NCBI RefSeq assembly: GCF_002854065.1
Contig: NZ_CP024147.1
Direction: 5' to 3' (one strand)
DNA: 64,000 nucleotides
DNA from: Escherichia coli
GTDB lineage: Bacteria > Pseudomonadota > Gammaproteobacteria > Enterobacterales > Enterobacteriaceae
Shown: positions 28,460-64,000 of the stretch, piece by piece
How positions within the stretch are numbered: position 1 is the stretch's first letter
How the letters are laid out: every line of letters begins with the position of its first letter
Translations under genes and position numbers: made by a program
The notes under the pieces: generated by a model
Told to the model about the DNA's origin: nothing
Database searches by the model: none
Seen by the model: the letters and a program-made list of their open reading frames with translations, nothing else

Positions 28460-28467
28460 ATATTCAG

Positions 28468-29637: not shown

Positions 29638-29647
29638 TTAATTATCC

Positions 29648-32523: not shown

Positions 32524-32538
32524 CGGTCTCTCTCTGAA

Positions 32539-35208: not shown

Positions 35209-35219
35209 TGGATTTGCCC

Positions 35220-36448: not shown

Positions 36449-36539
36449 CTGTTCTCCAATGACTAGTCTAAAAACTAGTATTAAGACTATCACTTATTTA
36501 AGTGATATTGGTTGTCTGGAGATTCAGGGGGCCAGTCTA

Positions 36540-39845: not shown

Positions 39846-41038
39846 TACAAAAAAAAGAAGTGAATTTAATTTCAAATCATATGATGAATTCATCAAAATG
39901 GATTACTCTATTATACCTAAAAAAATATACCCAGATGTATTTTATGATGTCGATGTTATCGGTTTTCAGGGCAAAGGGCTATTTTTTTCTGACAGACTGC
40001 TTGATGCAATACAAAATGCCGGGATTGTAGGGTTGCATATCGGTGACACGGAAATGGAAATGAATCCGTAGATTGATACAGGAACTTTCACTTTTAAAGG
40101 GATCTTTGGTGTCTGCGATTTTATCTTTCTGTTGGTTATTTAGCAATCCGGGAACGATATTAATCCGCTGAAGATCCTGATTTATCTACGGGGTAAATGC
40201 CCGAAATATAGAAGGTTTTATATTGGATCATATGAAAGGGGATCTTAACCTTGAAAATGCCATCAGGAAAGATGGTGGATTTTATCATAGTTATAATGAA
40301 AATAATCTTGCAGAGGGACGAAAATATTTAAGCACGGAAGAAATTAGCAAAATCCTCGAAAAGGGTAGTGTAACTGATGTTGATAGTAAAGGGCACTTTA
40401 AAGCAGGAGGATGTTGAATGAATAGTATAATAAATAAAAATATAAAAAAATAGATATGATTACTAAGGGTATTAAAAAATATCCTCTTGGAGAGGACAAG
40501 CAAGAGATCTCAAAATTAATTTGCGATTTTGAAAAAATGCCACGTAAAGAATGTAGTGTGTTTTATGGTGTTTTTTTTAATGATAGTGAACTAGTAGATA
40601 AATTAATTAAGATTGCAAGATTTTATGAGGGTGATGATAAAATAACCATAAACGTAATATCCTCTTTGGGAAATATGTTCGTGCGATACAAAATATATCC
40701 ATCAGAAGAATTATATAATCTTTTTTTTCAACTTGAAAAGTAAGAGGAAAGTTAATTATTATGTTTCTTTGTTCATTTTTAGATTTCCTCAATTTAGGAA
40801 TTATAAATTTAAATGGGACTATATTTTATCTATTCCAGATATTTCACCAAAAGATAAATCAAAAAGAAACTTTTACTCTATAGTCAATAATATCGTTTTG
40901 TCGGGAGAAACGATCCCTGTTGAGTATAAAAATAGAGTTATTAGCTTGCTGGAAATGTTTAGTAAGGGAAATATGGGAAGCGTGTATAATGATGAATATA
41001 TAGATTTAATTAATAGGCTAGTTAAGCAACACGGCTAA
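39846..41038 (+). other. AT-rich array of degenerate orphan toxin-tip and immunity ORFs (39898-40071, 40223-40417, 40456-40743, 40733-41038)
   Basis: Short ORFs in shifting frames, homopolymer A/T runs at frame breaks, and a degenerate Rhs junction-like sequence near 40160-40195. Confidence 0.45.
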
Positions 41039-41322
41039 GTCGGAACGTAATAATCTCGGTGAATATTGGTTTTTATTCTCCCGGATCTCCGCCAGTACTA
41101 ACAGGCGAAAATCCGGGAGGACTGATATTACGGCTGGATAATATCGTCAATAAACACCACACCATCAGTAGTACGCAACCAGCGCGGCGCTTTCAGTTTT
41201 GCCGCAAAGAACCAGATCAGTTCACAAAGCAGCCCCGTCAGGGGTTGTTCCATTTTAGATCCCTGCGCCTGTTCCGTCAGGATCTGGAGTAATACCTCGC
41301 AATATTCACACAATTGTAGTGG

Positions 41323-42735
<1,413 letters not shown>

Positions 42736-42973
42736 TGACACTCTATAAGAGTTTCAGCGAAGCGATCGCAGTGATCGGCCAGGTCTGTGAAATCGGTGGC
42801 AGAACTGAAAGGAATGGACAGTAAATCATAATCAGGGGTGAGGATTGTAGCCATAAGGCAACCTCCGATAAGTAGGCGTTAAAACCACCACCGAAGAGAC
42901 CAATCTTACGGGTGGTGGAATCGGGCGGAGTTGGTCTTACCGGCCTTATCGGATACCGGCGCATCTTTCGATG

Positions 42974-43811
42974 CTGGCAGGGAAAGCGGACATACCTGTA
43001 CGACGCGGAACAGCCGTACACGCCGGTGGCGGCCATCACGGGGCGCGGAGAGAGCCAGAAAATCTGGTATTACCACACGGACCTGACGGGCACGGTACAC
43101 GAGGTAACCGCGCCGGACGGGACGCTGGTGTGGGCGGGCTACCAGGCGGGATTTGGTGAAAACCGGGGCGACATCAGCAACAGCGGGGCGTACTTTGAGC
43201 AGCCGCTGCGGCTGCCGGGGCAGTATTATGATGAAGATACGGGGCTGCACTATAATCTGTTCAGATATTATGCGCCGGAGTGCGGGCGGTTTATCAGTCA
43301 GGACCCGATAGGGCTGGCGGGAGGAATAAACCTATATGCTTATGCGCCTAATCCGCTAAGTTATATTGATCCTCTTGGGCTTTGTAAATTAAGGGGAAGC
43401 GATGGGCGCTACAGAAGTGCACAGAATATTCAGGAAGAAATAGGCGGCCTACCCAATTTTGCAGGAAAAACTCCAGGAGAAATACGACAAACTTTGCGTA
43501 ATCGAGGTTATTCGTCGGTACAAGCGTATAGTGGAGGAGAGGTCTGGACAAAAGCATTACCTGACGGAAATACTGTTGCAGTGAGGCTTGATCCGGCAAA
43601 TCCTCGCTCACCTTCACATTATGCTGATGCTGTACCTCATGCTCATATTGAAACAGTTCCAACATCCAGTGTTTCTAATGGGAATTATCGCCCGCGAGAC
43701 GTGACTGGCAGGCATACTGCCACTGGTGGGGTTTCTGATCGAGGAACAAATCCGAATCATAACGCTGATGTTTACATTCCAATGTCTCCGGGACGATTCC
43801 CATATGATTAA
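42974..43811 (+). CDS. orphan Rhs C-terminal fragment (conserved core end plus alternative toxin tip); no upstream rhs body
   Basis: About 400 bp that are nearly identical to 38672-39070 by eye (core end through the DPxGL junction), followed by a different roughly 140-aa C-terminal domain. Confidence 0.7.
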
Positions 43812-43822
43812 TGTGAGGTTTT

Positions 43823-44086
43823 ATGAATATCCGAAATCAATATAATGAAGCCTTAAATAAATTAGAAGTTGATGTTAATGATGGTTTGAGAGATTTAATA
43901 AACATATATTGTGTGGCTATTGATTCTTTTGAAAATGATATCGTTGACTCGATTGCTTTATACGTGATTGATATGGGAAATAAAGATACTTGTCGATATC
44001 TACAAGAAGTCTTATCAGAGAATGAAGATCCTTATTTAGTAAAAGAATTTAATGCATGGATAAAAGAAATTAAGAAAAAATATTAA
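43823..44086 (+). CDS. putative immunity protein for the orphan Rhs toxin tip
   Basis: 87-aa AT-rich ORF 11 bp downstream of the toxin-tip stop. Confidence 0.55.
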   Translation: MNIRNQYNEALNKLEVDVNDGLRDLINIYCVAIDSFENDIVDSIALYVIDMGNKDTCRYLQEVLSENEDPYLVKEFNAWIKEIKKKY

Positions 44087-44091
44087 AATAA

Positions 44092-44133
44092 AAGCCGGGA
44101 AGGTTATAAAATCTTCCCGGCTTTTTATTTTTA
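44092..44133. terminator. bidirectional rho-independent terminator
   Basis: agccgggaag…cttcccggct stem flanked by A- and T-runs, between convergent ORFs. Confidence 0.75.
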
Positions 44134-44364
44134 ATTCTCGTTCAGTACACTAAACATCCCGTCCCGCATCCCCTTAACCGCCTGTTTAACCTGATAAAGT
44201 TCCCTGCGCAGTTCCTGTACTTCGTTGTTATCGGCAAGCAGGATCAGGCAGCCTTCCGAGATCTTCACAGTAACGCCCGTGCCGATCGAAAATTCCGCTT
44301 CTCTCAGCCATTTGGCGCTGATTTTGATCACCGGCGTGTCGCTGCTGTTGGGCAGATATCCCAC
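44131..44364 (-). CDS. SymE-like (AbrB-fold) toxin homolog
   Basis: 77-aa ORF …ISAKWLREAEFSIGTGVTVKISEGCLILL… resembles the SymE/SpoVT-AbrB swapped-hairpin family. Confidence 0.5.
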   Translation of the reverse strand: MGYLPNSSDTPVIKISAKWLREAEFSIGTGVTVKISEGCLILLADNNEVQELRRELYQVKQAVKGMRDGMFSVLNEN

Positions 44365-44477
44365 GGTACAACGGCGTTGTGTTTTGGAAATGGTGACTTC
44401 TGGCGTAATATCATGTTTAAGTTAGGGGCTTTCGTAGTCATACCCCGACTCTCCCCGGCCCTAAACACAACCCCCAC

Positions 44478-45917: not shown

Positions 45918-48362
45918 TTACGCGGCTTCAACTTTCCGCACTTTCTCCGTCAACTTTACCGGCTTCGTCGCCAGCTCTTCCGGATCAAAGTCATCAACGT
46001 TAATACTGCGCAGACGGCTTTCTTCCGCTTTCACCAAAATGGCGGCTTCATCTTTATCAATCAGCCCCTTCGCCAGCGCGTTGTGCGCCAGTTCATCCAG
46101 ACGGGTAAATGGCAGATTTTTACCCAGCTCTTTACAGATCCGCTGATGAATCGGGTCGGCGGCAATCACATCCACCAACGCCTCTTCCAGTAAACCAACC
46201 GGATTATGCTCGCTCGGCGTCAGGTACTGACCGCGACCAATACGTGAGCGAGTGGCGTTCGGCACTTGTAAAATCTTCGCCACTTTATGATCCAGCTTGT
46301 CAGACGGTGCCAGATAATGACGTCCGGTCGGGAAGATCACTACATTCAGCAGCCCGGCAACCACGCGGTTCGGGAAGTTTTGCAGTAAATCGTCCATCGC
46401 CTGTTCAGCCTTATACAGCGCATCCTGTACGCCCCAGTGCACCAGCGGCAGATCGGCTTCATTACGGCCTTCGTCGTCATAACGCTTCAGAACGGCGGAG
46501 GCGAGGTAGAGCTGGCTTAAAATATCCCCCAGACGTGCCGAGATACGCTCACGACGTTTCAGGCTGCCGCCCAGCACTGCCATCGAGACATCAGAAAGCA
46601 GGGCGAGGTTGGCGCTCAGGCGGTTCAGGTGCTGATAGTAGCGTTTAGTGGCATCGCCGGTTGGCGTGCTGCTGGTTAAACCGCGCGTCAGGCCCAGCCA
46701 GAAGCTGCGAACTTTGTTGCTACCGACGTGACCGATATGTTTGAACAACAGTTTATCGAACGCGTTGACGTCATTGTTCTTCGCCGCTTCCATCTCTTCC
46801 AGCACGTACGGATGGCAACGAATCGCTCCTTGTCCGAAGATCATCATGCTGCGGGTCAGAATGTTAGCCCCTTCAACGGTGATGGCAATCGGTGCGCCCT
46901 GGTAAGCACGCGCCAGGAAGTTGCTTTGCCCGAGCATAATGCCTTTACCGCCGGTAATATCCATCGCATCAATAATCGACTGCTGCCCGCGGTGGGTACA
47001 GTGATACTTAACGATAGCCGACAGCACGGCAGGTTTTTCGCCGAGCATAATGCCGTAGGTAATCAGCGATGCCGCAGCATCCATTACATAAGCGTTCCCG
47101 GCAATACGCGCCAGCGGCTCTTCAATCCCTTCCATCTTACCGATAGAGATTTTGAACTGACGGCGAATGTGAGCATACGCGCCGGTTGCCAGCGCTACCG
47201 ATTTCACGCCGCCGGTTGAGTTGGAAGGCAGTGTGATGCCGCGGCCTACCGAGAGGCACTCCACCAGCATCCGCCAGCCTTGCCCGGCCATTTTCGGCCC
47301 GCCGATGATGTAATCGATCGGCACGAAGACATCTTTACCGCGCGTCGGTCCGTTCTGGAACGGTACGTTCAGCGGGAAGTGGCGACGACCAATTTCCACG
47401 CCCGGCGTGGTGGTCGGGATCAGCGCACAGGTAATGCCTAAATCTTCTGCACCGCCGAGTAATTTTTCCGGGTCGGAGAGTTTAAACGCCAGACCCAGCA
47501 CGGTCGCAATCGGTGCCAGCGTAATGTAGCGTTTGTTCCAGGTCAGACGCATCCCCAGCACCTGCTGGCCCTGCCATTCGCCCATGCAGACAATCCCGGT
47601 GTCCGGAATCGCGCCCGCATCGGAACCCGCTTCCGGGCTGGTTAGTGCAAAGCAAGGGATTTCCTGACCACGCGCCAGACGCGGCAGATAGTGATCTTTC
47701 TGCTCGTCAGTGCCGTAATGTTGCAGCAGCTCGCCCGGGCCTAATGAGTTCGGCACGCCGACGGTAATCGCCAGGATCCCGCTCACGCCGGAGAGTTTTT
47801 GCAGCACGCGAGACTGGGCATAAGCCGAGAACTCCAGCCCGCCGTACTCTTTTTTGATGATCATCGCGAAGAAACGATGCTCTTTAAGGTACGCCCACAA
47901 CTCCGGCGGCAGATCCGCCAGCTCATGAGTAATCTGGAAATCATTCGCCATCCGGCAGGCTTCTTCTACCGGGCCGTCGAGAAACGCTTGCTCTTCAGCG
48001 GTCAGGCGCGGCTGCGGATAGTTATGCAGCTTTTTCCAGTCCGGCTTGCCCTGGAACAAGTCGCCCTCCCACCAGGTGGTGCCCGCATCAATCGCTTCTT
48101 TCTCAGTGCGCGACATCGGCGGCATCACCTTACGGAAACCGCGAAATACCGGCGCGGAAATCATCGACTTACGCATAGGCGCAAAGTTAAATGGCACGAG
48201 GATAATGGCCAGAGGCACCAGTACCCACGCCGACCACAGACCAGCAACGCCGAGGGCGGCTGTCCAGGCGAGCAAAATCAGACTGCTGATAAATAAGCTC
48301 ACGCGGTGATAGAACAACGCGCCGAGCAGGACAACCGTAGCGAGAATACTCAAAATCATCAT
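45918..48362 (-). CDS. fadE: acyl-CoA dehydrogenase
   Basis: Start placed at [14 protein letters not shown]… (814 aa); the track ORF is extended upstream. Confidence 0.93.
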
Positions 48363-48601
48363 AACGAAAAGCCCCTTACTTGTAGGAGGTCTGACCACTT
48401 GTGATGATATGGTTGTAGTGGATGTAAAAACATTTAGCAATGCGTTTACAATATAATTACAACAAAGCTCACATTGTTGCTGTTTTTATCCGCACTTCAG
48501 GTCAAAAAGTCCTGGTCATAGCACCTGCCCGTACTTCTCGCTTTTGGCGGTATCCGGTACACTGCATTTTGTCTATTACATTTATGCTGAAGGATATCCT
48601 C

Positions 48602-49180
48602 ATGTACCAGGATCTTATTCGTAACGAACTGAACGAAGCGGCGGAAACGCTGGCTAACTTTTTAAAAGATGACGCCAATATTCACGCCATTCAGCGCGCG
48701 GCGGTCCTGTTAGCAGATAGCTTTAAATCCGGTGGCAAAGTGCTTTCCTGCGGCAACGGCGGCTCCCATTGCGACGCCATGCACTTTGCCGAAGAGTTGA
48801 CCGGTCGCTACCGTGAAAACCGTCCGGGCTACCCGGCGATTGCTATTTCTGACGTTAGTCATATTTCATGCGTCGGTAACGATTTCGGTTTCAATGATAT
48901 TTTCTCCCGTTACGTTGAAGCGGTAGGTCGCGAAGGCGATGTACTGCTGGGGATCTCCACCTCCGGTAACTCTGCAAACGTGATCAAAGCGATCGCAGCG
49001 GCGCGTGAGAAGGGAATGAAAGTGATCACCCTGACCGGTAAAGACGGCGGCAAAATGGCTGGCACGGCGGATATCGAAATTCGCGTACCGCACTTTGGTT
49101 ATGCCGACCGCATTCAGGAGATTCACATTAAAGTGATCCATATCCTGATCCAGTTGATTGAAAAAGAGATGGTTAAGTAA
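48602..49180 (+). CDS. gmhA: sedoheptulose-7-phosphate isomerase
   Basis: [21 protein letters not shown]… 192 aa SIS-domain protein. Confidence 0.94.
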
Positions 49181-49320
49181 GTCTGGCGTAGGCCGGATAA
49201 GACGTTTACGCCGCATCCGGCAATTGTGCACCGATGCCTGATGCGACGCTGACGCGTCTTATCATGCCTACAAATCTGTACGCGAACCGTAGGCCGAATA
49301 ATGCGTTCACGCCGCATCCG
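49181..49320. repeat. REP/BIME repeat cluster
   Basis: Repeated gccggataagacgtttacgccgcatccggca and gcctgatgcgacgctg motifs. Confidence 0.75.
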
Positions 49321-49385
49321 ACCTGAAAATTCTTAAATCAATCTTCGCCGGGGGCCATGCGCTCCCGCTGTTGTGGAGGTTACCC

Positions 49386-50153
49386 ATGTGCGAATTGCTC
49401 GGGATGAGCGCCAACGTCCCTACCGATATCTGCTTTAGTTTCACCGGTCTGGTGCAGCGTGGTGGTGGAACCGGGCCACATAAAGATGGCTGGGGCATTA
49501 CCTTTTACGAAGGTAAAGGCTGTCGCACATTTAAAGATCCGCAACCCAGCTTTAACTCACCTATCGCCAAACTGGTCCAGGACTACCCGATAAAATCCTG
49601 TTCGGTGGTGGCTCATATTCGCCAGGCTAATCGGGGCGAGGTGGCGCTGGAAAATACTCACCCATTTACCCGCGAGTTATGGGGGCGTAACTGGACTTAT
49701 GCCCATAACGGACAACTGACGGGCTACAAATCACTGGAAACCGGCAACTTCCGCCCGGTAGGCGAAACCGACAGTGAAAAAGCCTTCTGCTGGCTCCTGC
49801 ATAAATTAACGCAGCGTTACCCGCGCACACCGGGCAACATGGCGGCGGTATTTAAATATATCGCCTCACTGGCGGATGAACTGCGGCAGAAGGGCGTTTT
49901 CAACATGCTGCTTTCGGACGGGCGCTATGTAATGGCGTATTGCTCGACTAATTTACACTGGATCACCCGCCGCGCGCCGTTTGGCGTGGCAACGTTGCTG
50001 GATCAGGATGTGGAAATCGACTTCAGCTCGCAGACCACACCGAATGATGTGGTCACGGTGATTGCGACACAGCCGCTGACGGGCAATGAAACCTGGCAAA
50101 AAATTATGCCAGGCGAATGGCGCTTATTTTGCCTCGGGGAGCGTGTAGTTTGA
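49386..50153 (+). CDS. yafJ: class II glutamine amidotransferase-like protein YafJ
   Basis: [21 protein letters not shown]… N-terminal Cys nucleophile. Confidence 0.9.
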
Positions 50154-50864
50154 TGCCAGCTGTGGTTGCACAACTTCGTGGCTTAACGGCTTGCTGACCA
50201 CGTAACGACCATTGACCACAGAAACGGTCGGTGGCTTACGGGTTTGCTCAAAGTAGTCGTAACCCGGCTTCAGTTGCTCCCAGAAGTCCTTAAAGTTGGA
50301 ATATTTGTGGCGCTTCATATTAGCGTCGGTCATGCGGAACGGGTAAATGCTCACTTGCACGCTCGGCTGACCAAATACCAGTGCGCCAGTAACGAACTGG
50401 AAAATCTCGTCAATGCCCTGATTGGTCATCGCGTAGCAGCCGATGGAAACACAATCGCCGTGGATCATCAGGTATTTCCCTTCATAACCATGCGCACGGT
50501 CATAGGCATTGGGGAAACCAATATTAATCGCTTTGTAGTAACGGCTGTCTGGTTTTAACTGATTACGCTGGATGCTATAAAACCCTTCCGGGCTTTTGAA
50601 ATCGCCCTGACGCTGTTTTGGCCCTAAGCCGCCGGAATATTTACAGATTTTATAGCTGTCGAGCAGTTGATATTGCTCGCCCATTTTGACGTAGAGATCG
50701 AGCGTACGTTCTTCCTTGAAGATCTGGATGTAGACAGGGGATCCCATCAACTGCTGCTTATACTCTTTGCTCACTGGCGTGGTCGAGCTACTGCTGCCCA
50801 GCAAACCGGCAAACGAAACGCACGGGATCAACAACATCGCAAGAATTAATGCGATTTTACGCAT
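50124..50864 (-). CDS. yafK: L,D-transpeptidase-family protein YafK
   Basis: 246-aa ORF with signal peptide. Confidence 0.88.
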
Positions 50865-51019
50865 ACTGCTTATTCCTTGATAAAACGGTTACACACGCCA
50901 GGACGGCAAAATGGATCCCAAATCGGAATAGTCTGGATTTGGAAGGCTCACATTATCACCAAAAGAGTTTTACGCAAGCCTGTCGGCGCAGGGTTTACAA
51001 ATTTCATCGGCAGCGGGCT

Positions 51020-51298
51020 TTACCCAAAGAGCGCCGCGTGAGTTCCAGTTCTCTCAAATCGTAAAAGTTTATCGGTAAGTTTGTAAATCAGGATCCAGTC
51101 CGGTTCGACATGAGCATCGCGATAACCTTTCCATGAACCTTGCAGCGGGTGGTCTTTATAAACAGCTGGAAGCGGTAAAGTATTATTGATAAGAAGCGTC
51201 ATAAGATATTTCAATTTATTCATATCCTTATGACGCTTTTGTGCAAGTTTTACATCCTTTGAAAATTGTCCCGAGTATTCAATATCCCTTTGAATCAT
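51020..51298 (-). CDS. yafQ: RelE-family mRNA interferase toxin YafQ
   Basis: 92-aa ORF directly downstream of dinJ. Confidence 0.92.
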   Translation of the reverse strand: MIQRDIEYSGQFSKDVKLAQKRHKDMNKLKYLMTLLINNTLPLPAVYKDHPLQGSWKGYRDAHVEPDWILIYKLTDKLLRFERTGTHAALFG

Positions 51299-51300
51299 AT

Positions 51301-51561
51301 TTAAATTCCTAATTTATCAAATAAATCATCGGCGTCTTTGGCCTTATGAACATCAACGCCAGCTTCGCTGTTTTTGATTGATTGAATGGTTAATTGATTA
51401 GGCTCGCGTAAATCAAACGGCAATGCCTTTTCACGCGCGACCTTTGTGAGGGTTATGCGAACCAGGTCAGAGATGGTCAGCCCCATCCCGGCCAGTACGT
51501 CCGCCGCCTGATTCTTCAGATCTTCATCGATTCGGGCGCGAACAAACGCGTTAGCAGCCAT
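51301..51561 (-). CDS. dinJ: antitoxin DinJ
   Basis: 86-aa ORF MAANAFVRARIDEDLKNQAADVLAGMGLTISD…. Confidence 0.92.
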   Translation of the reverse strand: MAANAFVRARIDEDLKNQAADVLAGMGLTISDLVRITLTKVAREKALPFDLREPNQLTIQSIKNSEAGVDVHKAKDADDLFDKLGI

Positions 51562-51770
51562 TGGGGTATCTCCTGTGCTGTATATTTATTCAGCTTGAAT
51601 TGTAGCTCAAATGAGCAACAGCGACAATCTATGAGTAATTTAATAAACGGATGTTTTTACATAATTCACTGAAATATATTTATTAATTTTATAATAATGG
51701 TTTATTAAGTTTGTTCAGGTACGGGCCGGGATACACTGTAACATCAATGCATGACCAGCCATTATTGAAT

Positions 51771-52520
51771 ATGTCCTTGCCGTCGATTCCCTCTTTTGTG
51801 TTGTCGGGATTACTGTTGCTTTGCTTGCCGTTTTCTTCATTTGCCAGCGCCACCACATCACATATCTCTTTCAGCTACGCCGCCCGCCAGCGGATGCAAA
51901 ACCGTGCGCGTTTATTAAAACAGTACCAAACCCATCTGAAAAAGCAGGCCAGCTATATTGTGGAAGGCAATGCCGAAAGCAGAAGGGCGCTACGCCAGCA
52001 CAACCGCGAACAGATAAAACAGCATCCAGAATGGTTTCCTGCGCCGCTCAAGGCGAGTGACAGACGCTGGCAGGCGCTGGCGGAAAACAACCACTTTTTA
52101 AGCAGCGACCATCTGCATAACATTACCGAAGTGGCGATTCACCGCCTGGAGCAGCAGCTTGGCAAGCCTTACGTCTGGGGCGGCACGCGGCCTGATAAAG
52201 GCTTTGACTGTAGCGGGTTGGTTTTTTATGCCTACAACAAGATCCTCGAGGCGAAGCTCCCGCGTACGGCTAATGAGATGTATCACTACCATCGGGCAAC
52301 GATTGTGGCGAATAACGACCTGCGCCGGGGAGATTTGCTGTTTTTCCATATCCACAGCCGCGAGATTGCCGACCATATGGGGGTATATCTGGGCGACGGT
52401 CAGTTTATTGAGTCACCGCGCACCGGGGAAACCATTCGGGTAAGTCGGTTAGCTGAACCTTTCTGGCAGGATCATTTTTTAGGCGCGCGCCGGATTTTGA
52501 CGGAGGAGACGATTTTGTAG
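51771..52520 (+). CDS. yafL: NlpC/P60-family peptidase lipoprotein YafL
   Basis: ORF with signal peptide and Cys peptidase motif (DCSGLV); start chosen at MSLPSIPSF. Confidence 0.85.
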   Translation: MSLPSIPSFVLSGLLLLCLPFSSFASATTSHISFSYAARQRMQNRARLLKQYQTHLKKQASYIVEGNAESRRALRQHNREQIKQHPEWFPAPLKASDRRWQALAENNHFLSSDHLHNITEVAIHRLEQQLGKPYVWGGTRPDKGFDCSGLVFYAYNKILEAKLPRTANEMYHYHRATIVANNDLRRGDLLFFHIHSREIADHMGVYLGDGQFIESPRTGETIRVSRLAEPFWQDHFLGARRILTEETIL

Positions 52521-52612
52521 GACGGATAAGGCATTCACGCCGCATCCGGCAGTTGTACGCAGGTGCCTGATGCGACGCTGGCGCGTCTTATCATGCCTAC
52601 AAATCTGTGCGT
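52521..52612. repeat. REP/BIME repeats upstream of rayT
   Basis: ggacggataaggcattcacgccgcatccggca… gcctgatgcgacgctggcgcgtcttatcatgcctacaa. Confidence 0.75.
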
Positions 52613-52695
52613 TTTTGCGAGCCGCTTTCCCGATATAACACAGCGTCATTGTCGGCCTTTCCTTTTCCTCTTACCGTTGAGAAAAAGGAGTCGCT

Positions 52696-53193
52696 ATGTC
52701 GGAATATCGTCGTTATTACATCAAAGGGGGAACATGGTTTTTCACGGTAAATTTACGCAATCGTCGAAGCCATCTTCTGACCTCCCAATTCCAGGCGCTC
52801 CGTAACGCCATTATTAAAGTTAAGCGAGACAGACCTTTTGAAATTAACGCCTGGGTCGTTTTGCCGGAGCATATGCATTGCATATGGACATTACCCGAAA
52901 GCGATGATGATTTTTCCTCCCGCTGGCGGGAGATTAAAAAGCAGTTCACCCATGCTTGCGGATTGAAAAATATCTGGCAACCGCGTTTTTGGGAGCACGC
53001 CATTCGCAATACCACAGATTATCGCCATCATGTTGATTATATTTATATAAATCCAGTGAAACATGGCTGGGTAAAGCAGGTGAGAGATTGGCCATTCTCA
53101 ACGTTCCATCGCGATGTCGCGCGAGGGTTATATCCCATCAATTGGGCGGGAGACATAACGGATTTGAGCGCTGGGGAGCGTATCATTTTATAA
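52696..53193 (+). CDS. rayT: REP-associated tyrosine transposase (IS200/IS605-like HUH)
   Basis: 165-aa ORF; flanked by REP clusters on both sides. Confidence 0.9.
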   Translation: MSEYRRYYIKGGTWFFTVNLRNRRSHLLTSQFQALRNAIIKVKRDRPFEINAWVVLPEHMHCIWTLPESDDDFSSRWREIKKQFTHACGLKNIWQPRFWEHAIRNTTDYRHHVDYIYINPVKHGWVKQVRDWPFSTFHRDVARGLYPINWAGDITDLSAGERIIL

Positions 53194-53199
53194 TTTTGC

Positions 53200-53320
53200 G
53201 CTGGTGCCGGATGTGCTTACGCTTATCCGGCCTACGAATCGTGCTTTAACGGTAGGCCGGATAAGGCGTTCACGCCGCATCCGGCAATTGTGCACCAATG
53301 CCGGATGCGCCCCTTAAAGG
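53200..53320. repeat. REP/BIME repeats downstream of rayT
   Basis: ccggatgtgcttacgcttatccggcctac… ggtaggccggataaggcgttcacgccgcatccggca. Confidence 0.75.
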
Positions 53321-53324
53321 CCAA

Positions 53325-55034
53325 TCAACTCAACGCCCCCATAATCTTCAACTCCAGCTCATCCGGCACTTCGTTATACGACAGCACATGCAGCCCCGGC
53401 GCAAACAACCTTGCATAACGCGCCAGCAAAGGGCGCAGCTGAGGCGGCACCAGCAGCACCGGGTCTTTCCCCGCTGCTTTCATCTGCTCCTTCACCTGCG
53501 GCATCGTGCTCTGGAACTGGTTGAGCATGTTCGGGTCGACCGGCACGCTGTCGAGCATCACTTTACCGCCCTGTTGCGCCTGATTCACCACATTGGTGAG
53601 CAGATTTTCCAGCTCATTATTCAGCGTATACACCGTCAGCTCCTGCTTGCGAACGAACGGATGGGTAATGCTGCGCCGCAGCGCCAGGCGTACATCGGCC
53701 GCCAGCAGAATATGATCTTTAGTCACCGCGCTACTGGCGACCAGCACGGTGGCGATGGTGACGATATCGCGCAGGGAAACGCCTTCGGTCAGTAGTGTGC
53801 GGTACACTTTCAGCAACTGGCTGTAATTCAGCGCCGCGCTTAAGTCTTCTGCCAGGCGCGGTGCCATCGACGACAAACGGTTATGCAACTGTGTGATGTC
53901 GTCATAGTTAAACAAATCAGGAATATAGCTGCGTACAATCTTATTCACATGGGTGGCAATCACGCTGGCGCTGTCGATCACCTGATACCCCATATTCAGC
54001 GCCTTCGCTTTCTGCGCAGGCTGGATCCAGGTCACCGGCATCCCGTACGCCGGGTCGTTCCCCAGCACGCCGTCAATCTCGCCGTAGGTTTCGCTGGAGG
54101 GCAGGGCCATCAGTTTATCCGCCGGAATATCCGCTTCATCAGCCTTAATGCCGTTGATGAAAATAGCGTACTGGCTGGGCTTAAGGCGGAAGTTTTCCCG
54201 AATGCGGATCTCCGGCAGCAGCACGCCGTTGCCGTCGGATATCACCTGTCGCACGCCGCGAATACGCTGGGTGAGCGGGTTGCCCTGGGCTTTGTCCACC
54301 AGCGCCACCAGCTTGTAACCGAGGCTTAAACTGATAGGCTCGATCAGCGGTATCGTTTCCCAACTGACCTGTTGCTCGCTGGTTTCGGTGATGGTGCGGG
54401 TCAGCGTTTCGAGACTTTTCTCCTCCGCCTTCGCTGCCTGCGGGCGTTTGCTCATCCGCCAGCCGGTAAAGCCAAGCAGGGCGCTGAACAGCAAAAACGG
54501 CAGATGCGGCATTCCCGGCACCACCGCCAGCACAAACATAATCCCGGTGGCGGTGTAGAGCACCGACGGGCTTGCCAGCAGCTGGTGGCGCACGTCATGG
54601 GCGATATCGCCGTTGTCGCTGACGCGGGTGACGATAATCGCCGCCGCGGTGGAGAGCAGCAGGGAAGGGATCTGCGCCACCAGCCCGTCGCCGATGGTCA
54701 TCAGCACATATTGCTGGAAGGCAGCATCGGCGCTCAGGTTGTATTTGAAGATCCCGATACAGACACCGCCGATCAGGTTGATCGCCAGAATCATCATCCC
54801 GGCGATGGCGTCCCCGCGCACAAACTTTGATGCCCCGTCCATCGCGCCGTAGAAATCGGCCTCGCTGGCGACATCTTTACGCCGGGTTTGCGCCTGCGCC
54901 TGGTTGATCAACCCGGCGTTAAGGTCGGCGTCAATCGCCATCTGTTTGCCGGGCATCGCGTCCAGGGTAAAGCGGGCAGAAACCTCGGAAATACGCTCGG
55001 CCCCTTTGGTGACGACGATAAAGTTGATTGTCAA
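53325..55034 (-). pseudogene. lfhA: Flag-2 lateral flagellar export protein FlhA homolog, 5'-truncated remnant
   Basis: FlhA-like sequence (…FYGAMDGASKFVRGDAIAG…) lacking the N-terminal region; no ATG start. Confidence 0.85.
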
Positions 55035-55043
55035 CAGCGTCAG

Positions 55044-55794
55044 TCAATCCGAGCGTGAAAGCATTATCGCCGCGCTGCACGGGCAGTCGATTTTTAACGG
55101 TGGCGGGCTGTCGCCGTTAAATAACATCAGCCCGACTCTTCCGCCGAAACCTGCTACCGTGGCGGTGCCGGAAGAGACGGAGAAAAAAGCGCGCGACGTC
55201 AACGAGAAAACGGCGCTGCTGAAGAAGAAATCCGCCACCGAGCTTGGCGAGCTGGCAACCAGTATCAACACCATCGCCCGCGATGCGCATATGGAAGCAA
55301 ATCTGGAGATGGAGATTGTCCCGCAGGGATTACGCGTACTGATTAAAGACGACCAGAACCGCAATATGTTTGAACGCGGCAGCGCGCAGATTATGCCGTT
55401 CTTTAAAACGCTGCTGGTGGAGCTCGCGCCAGTGTTCGACTCGCTCGATAACAAAATTATTATTACCGGGCATACCGATGCGATGGCCTACAAAAACAAT
55501 ATCTACAACAACTGGAACCTTTCGGGTGACCGCGCGCTTTCGGCTCGTCGGGTGCTGGAAGAGGCCGGAATGCCGGAAGATAAAGTGATGCAGGTGAGCG
55601 CGATGGCGGACCAGATGCTGCTGGATGCCAAAAATCCGCAAAGCGCGGGCAATAGGCGTATTGAAATTATGGTGCTGACCAAAAGTGCGTCCGATACGCT
55701 GTATCAATACTTTGGTCAGCATGGGGATAAAGTGGTGCAGCCGCTGGTGCAAAAGCTGGATAAGCAGCAGGTGCTTTCGCAGCGAACGCGCTAA
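55044..55794 (+). pseudogene. lafU: Flag-2 MotB-like stator protein, 5'-truncated remnant
   Basis: OmpA/MotB C-terminal domain ORF without N-terminal TM segment; abuts lfhA remnant. Confidence 0.85.
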
Positions 55795-55831
55795 ATGCTG
55801 AATCTTTACGCATTTCTCAAACCCTGAAATC

Positions 55832-55849
55832 ACTGTATACTTTACCAGT
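55832..55849 (+). promoter_or_regulatory. LexA (SOS) box in dinB promoter
   Basis: CTGTATACTTTACCAG matches the CTGT-N8-ACAG LexA consensus. Confidence 0.85.
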
Positions 55850-55864
55850 GTTGAGAGGTGAGTA

Positions 55865-56920
55865 ATGCGTAAAATCATTCATGTGGATATGGACTGCTTT
55901 TTCGCCGCAGTGGAGATGCGCGACAATCCCGCCCTGCGCGATATCCCTATTGCTATTGGCGGCAGCCGCGAACGTCGGGGGGTGATCAGCACCGCCAATT
56001 ATCCCGCGCGTAAATTTGGCGTACGCAGCGCTATGCCGACAGGGATGGCGCTCAAATTATGCCCACATCTCACCTTGCTTCCGGGGCGCTTTGACGCCTA
56101 CAAAGAAGCCTCAAATCATATCCGTGAAATCTTCTCGCGCTACACCTCTCGCATTGAACCGTCGTCACTGGATGAGGCTTATCTCGATGTCTCCGACAGC
56201 GTCCATTGCCACGGTTCTGCGACCCTCATCGCCCAGGAAATCCGCCAGACGATTTTCAGCGAGCTGCAACTGACGGCGTCTGCGGGCGTGGCACCAGTAA
56301 AGTTTCTCGCCAAAATCGCCTCCGACATGAATAAACCCAACGGCCAGTTTGTGATTACGCCGGCAGAAGTTCCGGCATTTTTACAAACCTTACCACTGGC
56401 AAAAATCCCCGGCGTCGGCAAAGTCTCGGCGGCAAAACTGGAAGCGATGGGGCTGCGGACCTGCGGTGATGTACAAAAGTGTGATCTGGTGACGTTGCTT
56501 AAACGCTTTGGCAAATTTGGCCGTATTTTATGGGAGCGTAGTCAGGGCATTGACGAGCGCGACGTTAACAGCGAACGGTTGCGAAAATCCGTCGGCGTGG
56601 AACGCACGATGGCGGAAGATATTCATCACTGGTCTGAATGTGAAGCGATTATCGAGCGGCTGTATCCGGAACTTGAACGCCGTCTGGCAAAGGTAAAACC
56701 TGATTTACTGATTGCTCGCCAGGGGGTGAAATTAAAGTTCGACGATTTTCAGCAAACCACCCAGGAGCACGTCTGGCCGCGGCTGAATAAAGCTGACTTA
56801 ATCGCCACCGCGCGTAAAACCTGGGATGAACGCCGCGGCGGGCGAGGTGTGCGTCTGGTGGGGCTGCACGTGACGTTGCTTGACCCGCAAATGGAAAGAC
56901 AACTGGTGTTGGGATTATGA
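55865..56920 (+). CDS. dinB: DNA polymerase IV (translesion Y-family polymerase)
   Basis: 351-aa [25 protein letters not shown]…. Confidence 0.95.
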
Positions 56921-56971
56921 TGTATACTATTATGTCTATTCTGGTGTGCATTATTATGAGGGGATCACTGT

Positions 56972-57265
56972 ATGCATCGAATTCTCGCTGAAAAATCGGT
57001 CAATATCACTGAGTTACGTAAAAACCCAGCTAAATACTTTATTGATCAACCGGTTGCGGTTCTTTCTAATAATCGCCCCGCAGGATATCTCTTAAGTGCC
57101 AGCGCATTCGAAGCGTTAATGGACATGCTTGCTGAACAAGAGGAGAAAAAGCCCATAAAGGCGCGCTTCCGTCCAAGTGCTGCAAGATTAGAGGAAATTA
57201 CACGCCGCGCTGAACAATATCTTAATGATATGACGGATGATGATTTCAATGACTTTAAGGAATAA
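56972..57265 (+). CDS. yafN: antitoxin YafN (Phd/YefM family)
   Basis: 97-aa ORF in dinB operon. Confidence 0.9.
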   Translation: MHRILAEKSVNITELRKNPAKYFIDQPVAVLSNNRPAGYLLSASAFEALMDMLAEQEEKKPIKARFRPSAARLEEITRRAEQYLNDMTDDDFNDFKE

Positions 57266-57267
57266 GG

Positions 57268-57666
57268 ATGCGGGTATTCAAAACAAAACTTATTCGCCTG
57301 CAACTTACAGCAGAGGAACTTGATGCGTTAACGGTGGATTTTATTTCCTATAAGCGTGACGGTGTTTTGCCAGATATATTTGGTCGCGATGCACTCTACG
57401 ACGACTCGTTTACCTGGCCATTAATCAAATTTGAGCGAGTTGCTCATATTCATCTGGCAAATGTGAATAATCCATTTCCGCCACAGTTGCGCCAATTCAG
57501 CAGAACGAATGACGAATCGCATTTGGTATATTGTCAGGGTGCGTTTGATGAGCAAGCATGGTTGCTCATTGCCATTCTGAAACCTGAACCTCATAAACTG
57601 GCTCGAGATAACAACCAAATGCATAAAATTGGGAAAATGGCAGAAGCGTTTCGCATGCGTTTTTGA
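57268..57666 (+). CDS. yafO: ribosome-dependent mRNA interferase toxin YafO
   Basis: 132-aa ORF immediately after yafN. Confidence 0.9.
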   Translation: MRVFKTKLIRLQLTAEELDALTVDFISYKRDGVLPDIFGRDALYDDSFTWPLIKFERVAHIHLANVNNPFPPQLRQFSRTNDESHLVYCQGAFDEQAWLLIAILKPEPHKLARDNNQMHKIGKMAEAFRMRF

Positions 57667-57675
57667 ATTTATATT

Positions 57676-57933
57676 ATGAATAACATACAAATAAGAAACT
57701 ATCAGCCTGGCGATTTTCAGCAACTATGCGCTATTTTCATTAGAGCGGTTATGATGACCGCCAGTCAGCATTATTCACCACAACAAATTGCCGCCTGGGC
57801 GCAGATTGACGAATCTCGCTGGAAGGAGAAACTCGCGAAATCACAAGTGCGGGTTGCAGTCATTAATGCACAACCGGTTGGTTTTATTTCCCGCATTGAA
57901 CATTATATCGATATGTTATTTGTTGACCCTGAA
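57676..57933 (+). pseudogene. yafP: GNAT-family acetyltransferase YafP, 5' part (first 86 codons) interrupted by IS1
   Basis: ORF terminates just inside IS1; remaining 64 codons resume in frame after the element. Confidence 0.88.
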
Positions 57934-57988
57934 GGTGATGCTGCCAACTTACTGATTTAGTGTATGATGGTGTTTTTGAGGTGCTCCA

Positions 57989-58264
57989 GTGGCTTCTGTT
58001 TCTATCAGCTGTCCCTCCTGTTCAGCTACTGACGGGGTGGTGCGTAACGGCAAAAGCACTGCCGGACATCAGCGCTATCTCTGCTCTCACTGCCGTAAAA
58101 CATGGCAACTGCAGTTCACTTACACCGCTTCTCAACCCGGTACGCACCAGAAAATCATTGATATGGCCATGAATGGCGTTGGATGCCGGGCAACTGCCCG
58201 CATTATGGGCGTTGGCCTCAACACGATTTTACGTCACTTAAAAAACTCAGGCCGCAGTCGGTAA
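57989..58264 (+). CDS. insA: IS1 InsA
   Basis: [43 protein letters not shown]…. Confidence 0.92.
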
Positions 58265-58534
58265 CCTCGCGCATACAGCCGGGCAGTGACGTCATCGTCT
58301 GCGCGGAAATGGACGAACAGTGGGGCTATGTCGGGGCTAAATCGCGCCAGCGCTGGCTGTTTTACGCGTATGACAGTCTCCGGAAGACGGTTGTTGCGCA
58401 CGTATTCGGTGAACGCACTATGGCGACGCTGGGGCGTCTTATGAGCCTGCTGTCACCCTTTGACGTGGTGATATGGATGACGGATGGCTGGCCGCTGTAT
58501 GAATCCCGCCTGAAGGGAAAGCTGCACGTAATCA

Positions 58535-59818
<1,284 letters not shown>

Positions 59819-59962
59819 CCACTACATAACCTGAATCTGAGGCAGCACCTGGCACGGCTGGGACGGAAGTCGCTGTCGTTCTCAAAATCGGTGGAGCTGC
59901 ATGACAAAGTCATCGGGCATTATCTGAACATAAAACACTATCAATAAGTTGGAGTCATTACC

Positions 59963-60166
59963 GACCCTGAATACACCCGCCGTGGGGTTGCCAGTGCTTT
60001 GTTAAAACCTTGGATTAAGTCTGAATCCGAACTTACGGTGGACGCCAGCATAACCGCAAAACCCTTTTTTGAACGTTATGGTTTTCAGACAGTTAAGCAG
60101 CAGCGCGTTGAATGCCGGGGAGCGTGGTTTACTAATTTTTCTATGCGATATAAACCGCAACATTAA
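59963..60166 (+). pseudogene. yafP: yafP 3' part (64 codons) downstream of IS1
   Basis: Frame continues from 57933 once IS1 and one copy of the 9-bp duplication are removed. Confidence 0.85.
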
Positions 60167-60471: not shown

Positions 60472-61020
60472 ATGGAATGGTACATGGGCAAATATATTCG
60501 TCCCTTATCCGATGCGGTATTTACCATCGCATCTGATGACCTGTGGATCGAGAGTTTAGCGATCCAACAATTACACACCACGGCAAATTTACCCAACATG
60601 CAGCGCGTAGTGGGGATGCCAGATTTACACACCCCGGACGCGGCTACCCGATTGGCGCAGCGTTCTTCTCTGTTGGTCGTTTTTACCCGGCAAGACGTCG
60701 CGGTAACGGTGCTGGAAACCGAAGCCGGGCGTTATCCTGACACGCTGCGTTCGTCGGGGCCGGGCGGTCAACATGTCAATAAAACCGACTCGGCGGTACG
60801 CGCCACGCATCTGGCATCCGGTATTAGCGTGAAGGTTCAGTCAGAGCGCAGCCAGCATGCTAACAAACGGCTGGCGCGATTGCTGATTGCCTGGAAGCTG
60901 GGGCAGCAGCAACAGGAAAATAGCGCGGCGCTGAAATCGCAGCGGCGAATGTTCCATCACCAGATTGAACGTGGCAACCCGCGACGGACATTTACAGGGA
61001 TGGCTTTTATCGAAGGATAA
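60472..61020 (+). pseudogene. prfH: fusion remnant: RtcB-like N-terminus (ykfJ) joined to release-factor homolog PrfH
   Basis: N-terminal …[11 protein letters not shown]… is an RtcB-type motif; C-terminal part has the release-factor motif [16 protein letters not shown]. Confidence 0.75.
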
Positions 61021-61076
61021 TGAAGGATGAAACTGCCGGAAGGTGATTGAACGCCATCCGGCAGCAAATCAAATAA

Positions 61077-62534
61077 TTACTTCGTCGGAATTTCTTTCAG
61101 CAGTTCAGTCAGCAGTGTCCAGTAATGACCTACGCTTTCGATGTGAACTTGCTCATCCGGAGAGTGTGGACCGGTGATAGTTGGCCCGATAGAAACCATG
61201 TCCATTTCCGGATACGGTTTTTTGAACAGACCACATTCCAGGCCCGCGTGGATAATCTGGATGTTCGGCGTCTTGTTGAACAGGCGCTGATAGGTTTCAC
61301 GTACCAGATGCATCACCGGAGAATTAGCGTCCGGCTGCCAGCCAGGATATGCGCCTTTCGCTTCGGTTTTCGCGCCAGCCAGTTTACCCAGCGAATCCAG
61401 CATGCTCACCACGTAGTCTTTACCGCTGTCGATCAGAGAACGGATCAGGCAGTGAATTTCTACGTTATTGTCAGTCATGGTCACCACACCGACGTTCAGG
61501 GAGGTTTCGACCACACCTTTTGCCACGTCGGAATTGCGGATCACACCGTTCGGGGTGGCGTTCAGCAGACGAATAAAGGTATCGCGAGATTTCGCAATCA
61601 GGGCAGCTTTATCGTTCGCTACAGAGTCCAGCAACAAGGCCAGATTTTTCTCTTTCTCTGCCAGCTCGTTTTTCAGGATCTCCTGATAGGTATTCACCAG
61701 AGATTTCAGGGCGTCGACTTTATCAGCTGCGACAGCAATGGTCGCAAAGGCTTCACGCGGGATGGCGTTACGCAGTGTGCCGCCGTTGAAATCAATAAGA
61801 CGCAGATCCAGTTCTTCTGCATGACCCGCCAGGAAGCGCACCAGCAGTTTGTTGGCATTACCCAGGCCAACGTGGATTTCACCGCCGGAGTGACCGCCTT
61901 TCAGACCTTTTAAGGTTAACTTGAAGGTTTCAAAACCAGCTGGAACCGCTTCACGATCTAAATGCAGGTTGGAGGTGAAGTCGATACCCCCCGCGCAACC
62001 CATGTAGATTTCACCTTCTTCTTCGGAGTCGGTGTTAATCAGAATATCAGCCTGCAACCAGTTGCTCTGTAAGCCAAAAGCACCGTCCATACCGGCTTCT
62101 TCGGTCATGGTTAGCAGCACTTCCAGCGGACCGTGAACCACGTTTTCGTCAGCCAGAACCGCCAGTGCAGAGGCCATACCAATGCCGTTATCCGCACCCA
62201 GCGTGGTGCCGCGCGCTTTAACCCATTCGCCATCAATATAAGGCTGGATAGGATCTTTCGTGAAGTCATGCACGGTGTCGTTATTTTTCTGCGGCACCAT
62301 ATCGAGGTGGGCCTGCAAGACGACCGGTTTACGATTTTCCATACCTGCTGTAGCAGGTTTACGAATCAGGATATTACCTACCTGATCGCGTTCGACATGG
62401 AAACCTTTCTCTTTTGCCCAACCAACAATGTATTCAGCGAGTTGCTCTTCATGATAGGACGGGTGAGGAATAGAACAGATTTTGGCAAAAATATCCCACA
62501 GCGGCTGTGGAGATAATTGAGACAGTTCAGACAC
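61077..62534 (-). CDS. pepD: cytosol nonspecific dipeptidase (aminoacyl-histidine dipeptidase)
   Basis: 485-aa M20-family ORF MSELSQLSPQPLWDIFAKICSIPHPSYHEE…. Confidence 0.95.
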   Translation of the reverse strand: MSELSQLSPQPLWDIFAKICSIPHPSYHEEQLAEYIVGWAKEKGFHVERDQVGNILIRKPATAGMENRKPVVLQAHLDMVPQKNNDTVHDFTKDPIQPYIDGEWVKARGTTLGADNGIGMASALAVLADENVVHGPLEVLLTMTEEAGMDGAFGLQSNWLQADILINTDSEEEGEIYMGCAGGIDFTSNLHLDREAVPAGFETFKLTLKGLKGGHSGGEIHVGLGNANKLLVRFLAGHAEELDLRLIDFNGGTLRNAIPREAFATIAVAADKVDALKSLVNTYQEILKNELAEKEKNLALLLDSVANDKAALIAKSRDTFIRLLNATPNGVIRNSDVAKGVVETSLNVGVVTMTDNNVEIHCLIRSLIDSGKDYVVSMLDSLGKLAGAKTEAKGAYPGWQPDANSPVMHLVRETYQRLFNKTPNIQIIHAGLECGLFKKPYPEMDMVSIGPTITGPHSPDEQVHIESVGHYWTLLTELLKEIPTK

Positions 62535-62794
62535 GTTAAGTCTCCTTGTCGATCACCCGCAAAACAGTATTGCAGGTCACAGGGTTAGCAGAAAATGTTG
62601 TCAACACAAGACAGGCTTGCGAGATATGTTTGAGAATACCACTTTATCCCGCGTCAGGGAGAGGCAGTGCGTAAAAAGACGCGGACTCATGTGAAATACT
62701 GGTTTTTAGTGCGCCAGATCTCTATAATCTCGCGCAACCTATTTTCCCCTCGAACACTTTTTAAGCCGTAGATAAACAGGCTGGGACACTTCAC

Positions 62795-63253
62795 ATGAGC
62801 GAAAAATACATCGTCACCTGGGACATGTTGCAGATCCATGCACGTAAACTCGCAAGCCGACTGATGCCTTCTGAACAATGGAAAGGCATTATTGCCGTAA
62901 GCCGTGGCGGTCTGGTACCGGGTGCGTTACTGGCGCGTGAACTGGGTATTCGTCATGTCGATACCGTTTGTATTTCCAGCTACGATCACGACAACCAGCG
63001 CGAGCTTAAAGTGCTGAAACGCGCAGAAGGCGATGGCGAAGGCTTCATCGTTATTGATGACCTGGTGGATACCGGTGGTACTGCGGTTGCGATTCGTGAA
63101 ATGTATCCAAAAGCGCACTTTGTCACCATCTTTGCAAAACCGGCTGGTCGTCCGCTGGTTGATGATTATGTTGTTGATATCCCGCAAGATACCTGGATCG
63201 AACAGCCGTGGGATATGGGCGTCGTATTCGTCCCGCCAATCTCCGGTCGCTAA
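62795..63253 (+). CDS. gpt: xanthine-guanine phosphoribosyltransferase
   Basis: 152-aa [23 protein letters not shown]… PRPP-binding motif [11 protein letters not shown]. Confidence 0.96.
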
Positions 63254-63344
63254 TCTTTTCAACGCCTGGCACTGCCGGGCGTTGTTCTTTTTAACTTCAG
63301 GCGAGTTACAATAGTTTCCAGTAAGTATTCTGGAGGCTGCATCC

Positions 63345-64000
63345 ATGACACAGGCAAACCTGAGCGAAACCCTGTTCAAACCCCGCTTTAAACATCCTGA
63401 AACCTCGACGCTAGTCCGCCGCTTTAATCACGGCGCACAACCGTCTGTGCAGTCGGCCCTTGATGGTAAAACCATCCCTCACTGGTATCGCATGATTAAC
63501 CGTCTGATGTGGATCTGGCGCGGCATTGACCCACGCGAAATCCTCGACGTCCAGGCACGTATTGTGATGAGCGATGCCGAACGTACCGACGATGATTTAT
63601 ACGATACGGTGATTGGCTACCGTGGCGGCAACTGGATTTATGAGTGGGCCACCCAGGCGATGGTGTGGCAACAAAAAGCCTGTGCGGAAGAAGATCCGCA
63701 ACTCAGTGGTCGTCACTGGCTGCATGCGGCTACGTTGTACAACATTGCCGCCTATCCTCATCTGAAAGGAGATGACCTGGCCGAGCAAGCGCAGGCTTTG
63801 TCAAACCGCGCCTATGAAGAGGCCGCTCAGCGTCTACCGGGCACGATGCGGCAGATGGAGTTTACCGTACCCGGCGGTGCGCCCATCACCGGCTTTTTGC
63901 ATATGCCGAAAGGCGATGGCCCGTTCCCGACGGTATTAATGTGTGGTGGTCTGGATGCGATGCAGACGGACTATTACAGCCTGTATGAACGTTATTTTGC
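63345..64000 (+). CDS. frsA: esterase FrsA, 5' portion (runs off window end)
   Basis: ATG at 63345 with RBS ggaggc upstream; [23 protein letters not shown]…. Confidence 0.9.

Follow-up and report, generated by a model that had tools for sequence, protein, structure and literature searches.

The Flag-2 deletion scar of Escherichia coli and its lfhA'/'lafU join shared with other enterobacterial genera

Remnants of the Flag-2 lateral flagellar gene cluster were described in Escherichia coli K-12 as the fhiA/mbhA pair (Ren et al. 2005, J Bacteriol 187:1430, as cited in PMC3032704 and PMC6993521), and the passages of PMC3032704 available to us record them for both K-12 and B. According to the accessible passages of the survey by De Maayer et al. 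(2020; PMC6993521), en bloc lfhA-lafU deletions are pervasive across Enterobacterales, lfhA and lafU pseudogene pairs are present in 531 of 4028 strains, Citrobacter among them, and for the most part in taxa where intact loci are found as well, and Atlantibacter has no flag-2 locus. Here, we analyzed a 64,000-nt stretch of E. coli DNA (contig NZ_CP024147.1, RefSeq assembly GCF_002854065.1; hereafter the window), which carries such a scar, composed of the gene fragments lfhA' and 'lafU. The scar itself is already known from K-12 and is ordinary for E. coli. We found, however, that in every lineage examined it is built on one and the same codon-level join, which is shared by six or more lineages of genus rank, namely Escherichia, Citrobacter, Kluyvera, Atlantibacter, Enterobacter sp. 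Ap-916 and a lineage known from a metagenome. On balance, we favor the interpretation that this join is a single, very old empty Flag-2 allele which coexists in these lineages with the intact 36-kb cluster, and that balancing selection together with recombination keeps both alleles and makes the dead gene fragments look selected.

The left part of the scar, lfhA' (53325-55028, minus strand, stop codon 53325-53327), comprises the 3' 1704 nt (567 codons and the stop) of the Flag-2 gene for the FlhA-type export gate. It can be aligned without gaps to the last 1704 of the 2094 nt of lfhA from E. coli 042 with 95.7% identity. The corresponding open reading frame (ORF; 53325-55034, minus strand) encodes 569 aa and matches the Pfam FHIPEP domain (E = 1.2e-188) over positions 101-656 of the 657-position profile, which indicates that the N-terminus is missing. 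The absent 5' 390 nt represent the first 130 codons of the gene, i.e., the N-terminal transmembrane part, and in full-length LfhA relatives the join motif is found at residue 130-131. The TTG at 55034, chosen as the start of lfhA' by the ORF caller, is an artefact of that caller and sits in lafU-derived DNA. In the CUWW06 assembly and in K-12 MG1655, RefSeq labels this left feature as a pseudogene, "flagellar biosynthesis protein FlhA, missing N-terminus".

The right part, 'lafU (55029-55794, or from 55026 if the nucleotides shared with lfhA' are counted; plus strand, stop codon 55792-55794), retains the 3' 766-769 nt of the Flag-2 gene for the MotB-type stator and aligns to the 3' 769 of the 924 nt of 042 lafU. 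Preserved are the linker and the OmpA-like peptidoglycan-binding domain (Pfam OmpA, E = 8.8e-15, carried by the frame at 55036-55791, plus strand). The 5' ~155 nt (~52 N-terminal codons) are gone; in 042 they specify the transmembrane helix of MotB type, AWKVAFADFTLAMMALFMTLW, together with its Asp. The lafU coding sequence of RefSeq/PGAP, whose coordinates we converted from the CUWW06 and K-12 annotation, spans 55009-55794 (plus strand) and begins with a GTG located 6 codons upstream of the join, within lfhA-derived DNA read antisense. This start is an annotation convention and no sign of expression.

Neither remnant is capable of its original job. A functional FlhA-type export gate has a complete N-terminal membrane domain (~697 aa in total), of which 130 codons are absent here, while a MotB-type stator depends on the transmembrane helix with the conserved Asp and on the upstream motA (lafT), both of which belong to the deleted segment.

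We determined the position of the join by three-way alignments with two intact clusters, those of E. coli 042 (NC_017626; lfhA 284682-286775, lafU 322236-323159) and of strain 720632, which yield identical breakpoints. The lfhA homology ends at 55028 and the lafU homology begins at 55026; the deletion join is thus the GAT at 55026-55028, a 3-bp microhomology common to both parents. As read off the alignments, this GAT is part of an imperfect direct repeat of 15 bp, whose two copies (GTTGATGATCATCAG and GTGGATTGTCAACAG) agree at 11 of 15 positions. The two window fragments correspond, in gapless alignments, to the genes at either end of the 042 cluster, which occupies the same chromosomal locus. 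Yet, 042 carries 36,008 bp more, which have no counterpart between window positions 55028 and 55029 and comprise lfhB through lafT and the 5' ends of lfhA and lafU, ~40 genes altogether. The interior of the cluster (lfhB to lafT) is absent from the locus, a statement that concerns the 64-kb window.

The initial annotation had recognized here a Flag-2 deletion scar made of two 5'-truncated, divergent and directly adjacent gene fragments, and had proposed alignment to the 042 cluster as a check; the FHIPEP and OmpA domains, the 042 alignment and the RefSeq annotation all agree with this, and no full-length lfhA or lafU was recovered. The abutting of the two genes likewise stands, but the join itself had been estimated at about 55035-55044, i.e., 7-16 nt too far to the right. 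The left and right parts abut with zero gap also in 10 other scar alleles (K-12 and nine more strains), and in K-12 the join is base-for-base as in the window, with 185 of 191 positions identical across it and no gaps. That these sequences are no scar at all, and represent instead diverged full-length genes, Flag-1 paralogues or an artefactual assembly of unrelated DNA, was considered and rejected: the match to both ends of the 042 cluster is gapless at 95-96% identity with 36,008 bp lying between them, and the same join occurs in thousands of independently assembled complete genomes, which leaves that explanation with practically no credit.

Two small features were noted at or near the join. 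The fusion creates a short inverted repeat (GTTGA-TTG-TCAAC, 55023-55035) and with it a perfect TTGACA hexamer on the minus strand, with no -10 match at the proper distance. In addition, a Chi sequence (GCTGGTGG) is present within lfhA' at 54581-54588 (plus strand), ~440 nt from the join, and could bias where recombination exchanges resolve.

Among 5426 complete E. coli genomes, the 2.7-kb scar region was found in one piece in 4072 and a 91-nt probe spanning the join was contiguous in 4085. In turn, an uninterrupted left breakpoint, indicative of intact lfhA, was detected in 1290 genomes and an uninterrupted right breakpoint in 1318. Approximately 75% of complete E. coli genomes therefore carry the scar and ~24% the cluster, with less than 1% left for other states. 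The former value agrees with the truncated lfhA/lafU copies reported for 76 of 100 E. coli strains in the portion of PMC6993521 at hand. Carriers include O157:H7, O55:H7, strains of sequence type ST648, Nissle and others. A scar shared so widely does not discriminate between lineages and provides no evidence of K-12 ancestry; taken alone, it is a textbook feature of three quarters of E. coli genomes.

For this reason, the proposal of the initial annotation that the scar confirms a K-12-like backbone does not hold. The window does resemble K-12 fhiA/mbhA (lfhA'/lafU') in its fragments, their orientation, the join and the neighbors (yafL and rayT on the left, dinB-yafNOP on the right). It represents, however, a rare allele, 95.6% identical to K-12 in lfhA' and 96.4% in lafU', and a private C at 55045 closes the lfhA frame with a stop located five codons upstream of the join, whereas in K-12 this frame stays open for 36 codons. 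Identity to K-12 amounts to 95.1% over 53200-55900, 96.5-96.7% over 47329-57933, 98.6% over 60738-63751 and 98.3-98.8% in the upstream core, where a 16-kb non-K-12 insert is located at 28466-44426. Near-identity to MG1655, as would characterize a K-12 backbone, was thus not observed, and the resemblance of the window to K-12 is limited to local gene order. The CUWW06 assembly alone matches the window at ~100%, the next best match reaching 98.0%.

We then turned to species other than E. coli. One genome of each bacterial species was scanned with a codon-degenerate pattern covering the join, and nine contigs matched. They belong to E. albertii, a divergent E. coli, Citrobacter sp. MGH106, Kluyvera ascorbata, Atlantibacter hermannii, A. 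subterranea and A. sp. RC6, and to two metagenome-assembled genomes with E. coli-like sequence. The latter two, labelled as the Gram-positive taxa Collinsella sp. and Clostridiales bacterium, carry the E. coli-type scar and are most likely the product of E. coli contamination of the bins. In every match, the genes are cut at the same codon (…M-I / I-N-F-I-V-V-T-K-G in lfhA and …L-W / I-V-N-S-V-S in lafU, the slash marking the cut). The DNA around the join is diverged at the genus level, with synonymous divergence (dS) above 1 between genera and of 0.34-0.81 within Atlantibacter. A homologous join was further found, via truncated gene calls, in Enterobacter sp. Ap-916 and in a metagenomic enterobacterium, in both with a more diverged LafU; a protein search with the Kluyvera remnant retrieved no near-identical proteins and gave these gene calls as its by-product. 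The left neighbor yafL is conserved, and in Citrobacter the lpcA-yafJ-dpaA genes on the left and dinB on the right are retained as well.

The reading frames of the remnants are well preserved in these genomes. In Citrobacter, Kluyvera and the three Atlantibacter species, lfhA' is an open 567-codon frame free of indels, with ratios of nonsynonymous to synonymous divergence (dN/dS) of 0.02-0.11; its first 30 retained codons specify an invariant protein sequence across genera, while their synonymous sites are saturated. Across the same genera, lafU' exhibits in-frame indels only and dN/dS of 0.03-0.2.

We also detected a full-length LfhA (696 aa) in A. subterraneus, encoded beside lfhB, lfiRQPNM, lafK, lfiEFGHI and an NlpC/P60 gene. 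The intact lfhA of A. subterraneus differs from the scar remnant of A. subterranea at only 19 of 1704 nt (98.9% DNA identity), which implies that Atlantibacter, like E. coli, is polymorphic within species for the scar and the intact cluster. The pseudogene pairs described in the passages of PMC6993521 available to us correspond to the scars found here in Citrobacter, Kluyvera, Atlantibacter and Enterobacter. Our results differ from that account in the single codon-level join found in each lineage examined and in the presence of intact lfhA and cluster genes in A. subterraneus; the passages of the 2020 surveys that we could consult, PMC6993521 included, mention neither the identity of the join between genera nor an intact Atlantibacter locus.

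Independent random deletions cannot account for a pair of breakpoints that recurs unchanged in at least six lineages, which leaves either a single old event or a mechanism that remakes the join. The relationship of scar and intact alleles was addressed in E. coli. The window and K-12, representing two scar alleles, differ mostly at synonymous sites (lfhA' dS 0.18, dN/dS 0.04; lafU' dN/dS 0.07), a pattern that old pseudogenes should not exhibit. All 11 sampled scar alleles possess one join and no indels. Their flanks are as diverse as those of the intact alleles, and haplotypes are shared between the two classes up to the join. The clearest case came from a query in which the window remnant was fused to its continuation from 042: this chimera identified strain 33F4, whose intact lfhA does not differ from the window at any of the 1553 nt of 53476-55028, a tract ending at the join, all 11 differences between the two being confined to the last 150 nt of the gene. 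Similarly, lfhA' of K-12 differs from the intact gene of 720632 at 1 of 1704 nt, that of GN25 from 042 at 0 of 1704 nt, and that of strain 98191 from GPEC1240 at 6 nt. The scar flanks are not old decaying DNA; they are near-identical to intact alleles.

The right flanks of the same pairs diverge, with 22 of 766 nt differing between the window and 33F4 and 24 of 766 nt between K-12 and 720632. Alleles that match on the left and differ on the right are mosaics. A chimeric query aimed at an intact allele matching the right flank of the window returned 97.4% identity at best, and the lafU' haplotype of the window was seen in CUWW06 only. Close to the join, the TACT-type right-hand haplotype is carried by 10 of 11 scar and 2 of 5 intact alleles; as the sample is small and the strains are non-independent, this link with the scar is suggestive only. 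The intact class is itself not free of damage. According to the annotation, lfhA is broken in two of the six intact-cluster strains examined, by an internal stop in 720632 and by a frameshift in AZ147, and 720632 additionally possesses an IS1 insertion sequence next to lafA and a broken fliH, from which it appears that many intact Flag-2 clusters are decaying too.

Taken together, these observations make it quite probable that the join goes back to one old microhomology deletion, and that the empty allele has persisted and been exchanged by homologous recombination ever since. The alignments show that a deletion of ~36 kb took away everything between lfhA codon 130 and approximately lafU codon 52, and that the two divergent 3' gene parts were joined head to head at the GAT microhomology. 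In the scenario that we propose, this would have been a single ancient event of illegitimate recombination at the short imperfect repeat. From then on, the empty allele would have coexisted with the intact cluster, the two being swapped between chromosomes by homologous recombination within the lfhA and lafU sequences that flank the join. Exchange tracts could reach as far as the join, where homology stops, and most of the divergence seen in the remnants would have accrued while the sequence belonged to a working gene. This scenario accounts for the near-identity of scar flanks to intact alleles of the same species, for the strong apparent purifying selection on non-functional remnants, for the same join in several genera and for sporadic premature stops in individual scar alleles.

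The competing possibility is a recurrent precise deletion, in which the same join would be remade in each lineage by a site-preferring mechanism, for instance a recombinase or a break-prone sequence. In its favor, one join recurs in six or more lineages of genus rank whose flanks have diverged to saturation, the flanks of scars in both E. coli and A. subterranea hardly differ from intact alleles of their own species, and divergence between genera is not reduced next to the join. A 10-bp palindrome centered on a GATC (GATGATCATC), read from the 042 alignment at the left breakpoint and partly kept in Atlantibacter, also speaks for it. Yet, the parental sequences share just 2-3 bp and the 11/15 imperfect repeat at a distance of ~36 kb, which is no known substrate for reproducible deletion, and the annotation of the clusters examined includes no recombinase gene. 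The transposase gene rayT, a neighbor of the scar in E. coli, does not occur at the loci of Citrobacter, Kluyvera and Atlantibacter. Moreover, deletion in situ does not predict that the right flank should differ from the intact strain matching on the left, as it does in the pairs described above, although these pairs were picked by left-flank similarity. We therefore regard a repeatedly remade join as unlikely.

Several points nevertheless weigh against a single origin with allele exchange. Such an origin requires that both alleles have persisted, or have been re-exchanged, across lineages whose synonymous sites are saturated, and this would call for balancing selection over long periods or for transfer from one genus to another now and then. 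The exchanges may have run in either direction, toward gain or loss of the cluster. The haplotype sample is small (11 scar alleles, and four, later six, intact E. coli alleles), and within it no nucleotide specific to the scar, as proof of common descent would require, was found beside the join: the 77 bp at 55018-55094 are invariant in both classes except for singletons, and site 55017 is A or G in both.

The conservation of the fragments admits yet another explanation, namely that the beheaded LfhA, with its last four membrane helices and cytoplasmic ring domain, or LafU, with its peptidoglycan-binding domain, or both, are kept by selection for a new role. The open, indel-free frames and the low dN/dS values reported above for the non-E. 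coli scars, as well as the invariant protein sequence just after the join, are what selection would produce. In one persister screen, the Keio mbhA (lafU) mutant was scored as less tolerant to ciprofloxacin (PMC13131330), and a weak promoter-like site faces lfhA' at 55090-55063. However, the mutant phenotype may be a polar effect on dinB, which lies 70 bp downstream, and promoter-like sites are not more frequent than in shuffled sequences (4 vs. 1.8 +/- 1.3). No conserved start codon was found upstream of the join across the scar lineages: the length of the open extension ranges between 5 and 133 codons, and no start at all is present in Citrobacter. LafU' has neither a membrane anchor nor a signal sequence and so no route to the periplasm. 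The frames are not uniformly intact either, since the single difference between the CUWW06 remnant and the window is a nonsense change, codon 336 of lfhA' is a stop in E. albertii, and of the E. coli gene calls starting at the join many end 15-136 residues early, some of which may be contig ends. Intact alleles exist in the same genera and species (see also PMC6993521, Table 1) and are near-identical to the scar flanks; the low dN/dS is explained by selection that acts on the intact class and by recombination between the classes.

The Atlantibacter data call for caution with such ratios. With the genus listed as having no flag-2 locus in the passages of PMC6993521 at our disposal, the dN/dS of 0.02-0.03 among its three species and the open frames were first read as selection on the remnants themselves, an interpretation that was dropped after the full-length LfhA of A. 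subterraneus had been found. Open frames and low dN/dS in gene fragments are insufficient by themselves as proof of function. Population genetics suggests that a persisting and freely recombining intact class suffices to keep dN/dS low in both classes, and the low values of the remnants (0.02-0.1) are best explained by exchange with intact alleles rather than by function. We thus hold a new role for either fragment to be improbable, slightly more so than recurrent deletion.

The single old, exchanged allele combines a 36-kb presence/absence difference, one join in several genera and flanks refreshed from intact alleles. If this is true, the Flag-2 locus would provide a clear case in nature of a gene-cluster polymorphism that is long-lived and kept through homologous recombination. 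The identity of the join between genera, unlike the scar alone, which is uninformative on lineage, is a modestly interesting lead for population genomics and bears on the number of Flag-2 losses in Enterobacterales, i.e., whether the cluster was lost once, with subsequent spread, or many times.

As for the surroundings of the scar, its left neighbors in the window are yafQ, dinJ, yafL (NlpC/P60) and a gene for a 165-aa protein, and its right neighbors dinB, yafN, yafO and an interrupted yafP. The yafL-rayT and dinB-yafN-yafO-yafP context was confirmed by ORFs, Pfam domains and collinearity with the annotated CUWW06 and K-12 loci. The 165-aa gene (52696-53193) is annotated in relatives as the REP-associated tyrosine transposase RayT. 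It is followed at 53205-53315 by palindromic repeats of the REP (repetitive extragenic palindromic) type, which separate it from the 3' end of lfhA' and form the left boundary of the scar locus; this stretch has a median of 35 matching places per genome and recurs in the window at 7284-7372 and 52517-52610. On the other side, dinB (55865-56920; Pfam IMS domains) is preceded, in the 70-bp lafU-dinB spacer, by a LexA-box-like sequence (CTGTATACTTTACCAG, 55833-55848, plus strand), which we take to be the dinB SOS box and which overlaps a promoter-like site at 55814-55841.

The yafL and rayT genes (51546-53309) are unusually diverged from K-12, with dS of 0.26 and 0.34, respectively, compared to 0.075 for dinB, and the stretch from yafL through lafU resembles, as a whole, a recombining region of high diversity. 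Further upstream, the 16-kb segment absent from K-12 (28466-44426) occupies the tRNA-Asp/yafT-ykfM position. Its coverage stays below 80% in every complete E. coli genome of the collection, and its best matches are to type VI secretion genes (tssF, tssG and the ImpA family), Rhs proteins and IS3/IS66 elements.

Insertion sequences also mark the region downstream of the scar, where yafP is interrupted by an IS1 (57934-58568 and 59825-59963) that is itself split by a 1.26-kb, ISEc31-like element of the IS3 family (58569-59824). The CUWW06 assembly shares the IS1 in yafP and lacks the nested IS3 element; in turn, it has an additional IS1 between yafQ and dinJ (window 51020-51561) that does not occur in the window. 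Over 47977-58568, the two sequences differ at 10 positions, one in 47977-51286 and nine in 51280-58568. The few differences, together with the distinct insertion sequences, indicate that the window derives from a close relative of CUWW06 and not from that assembly.

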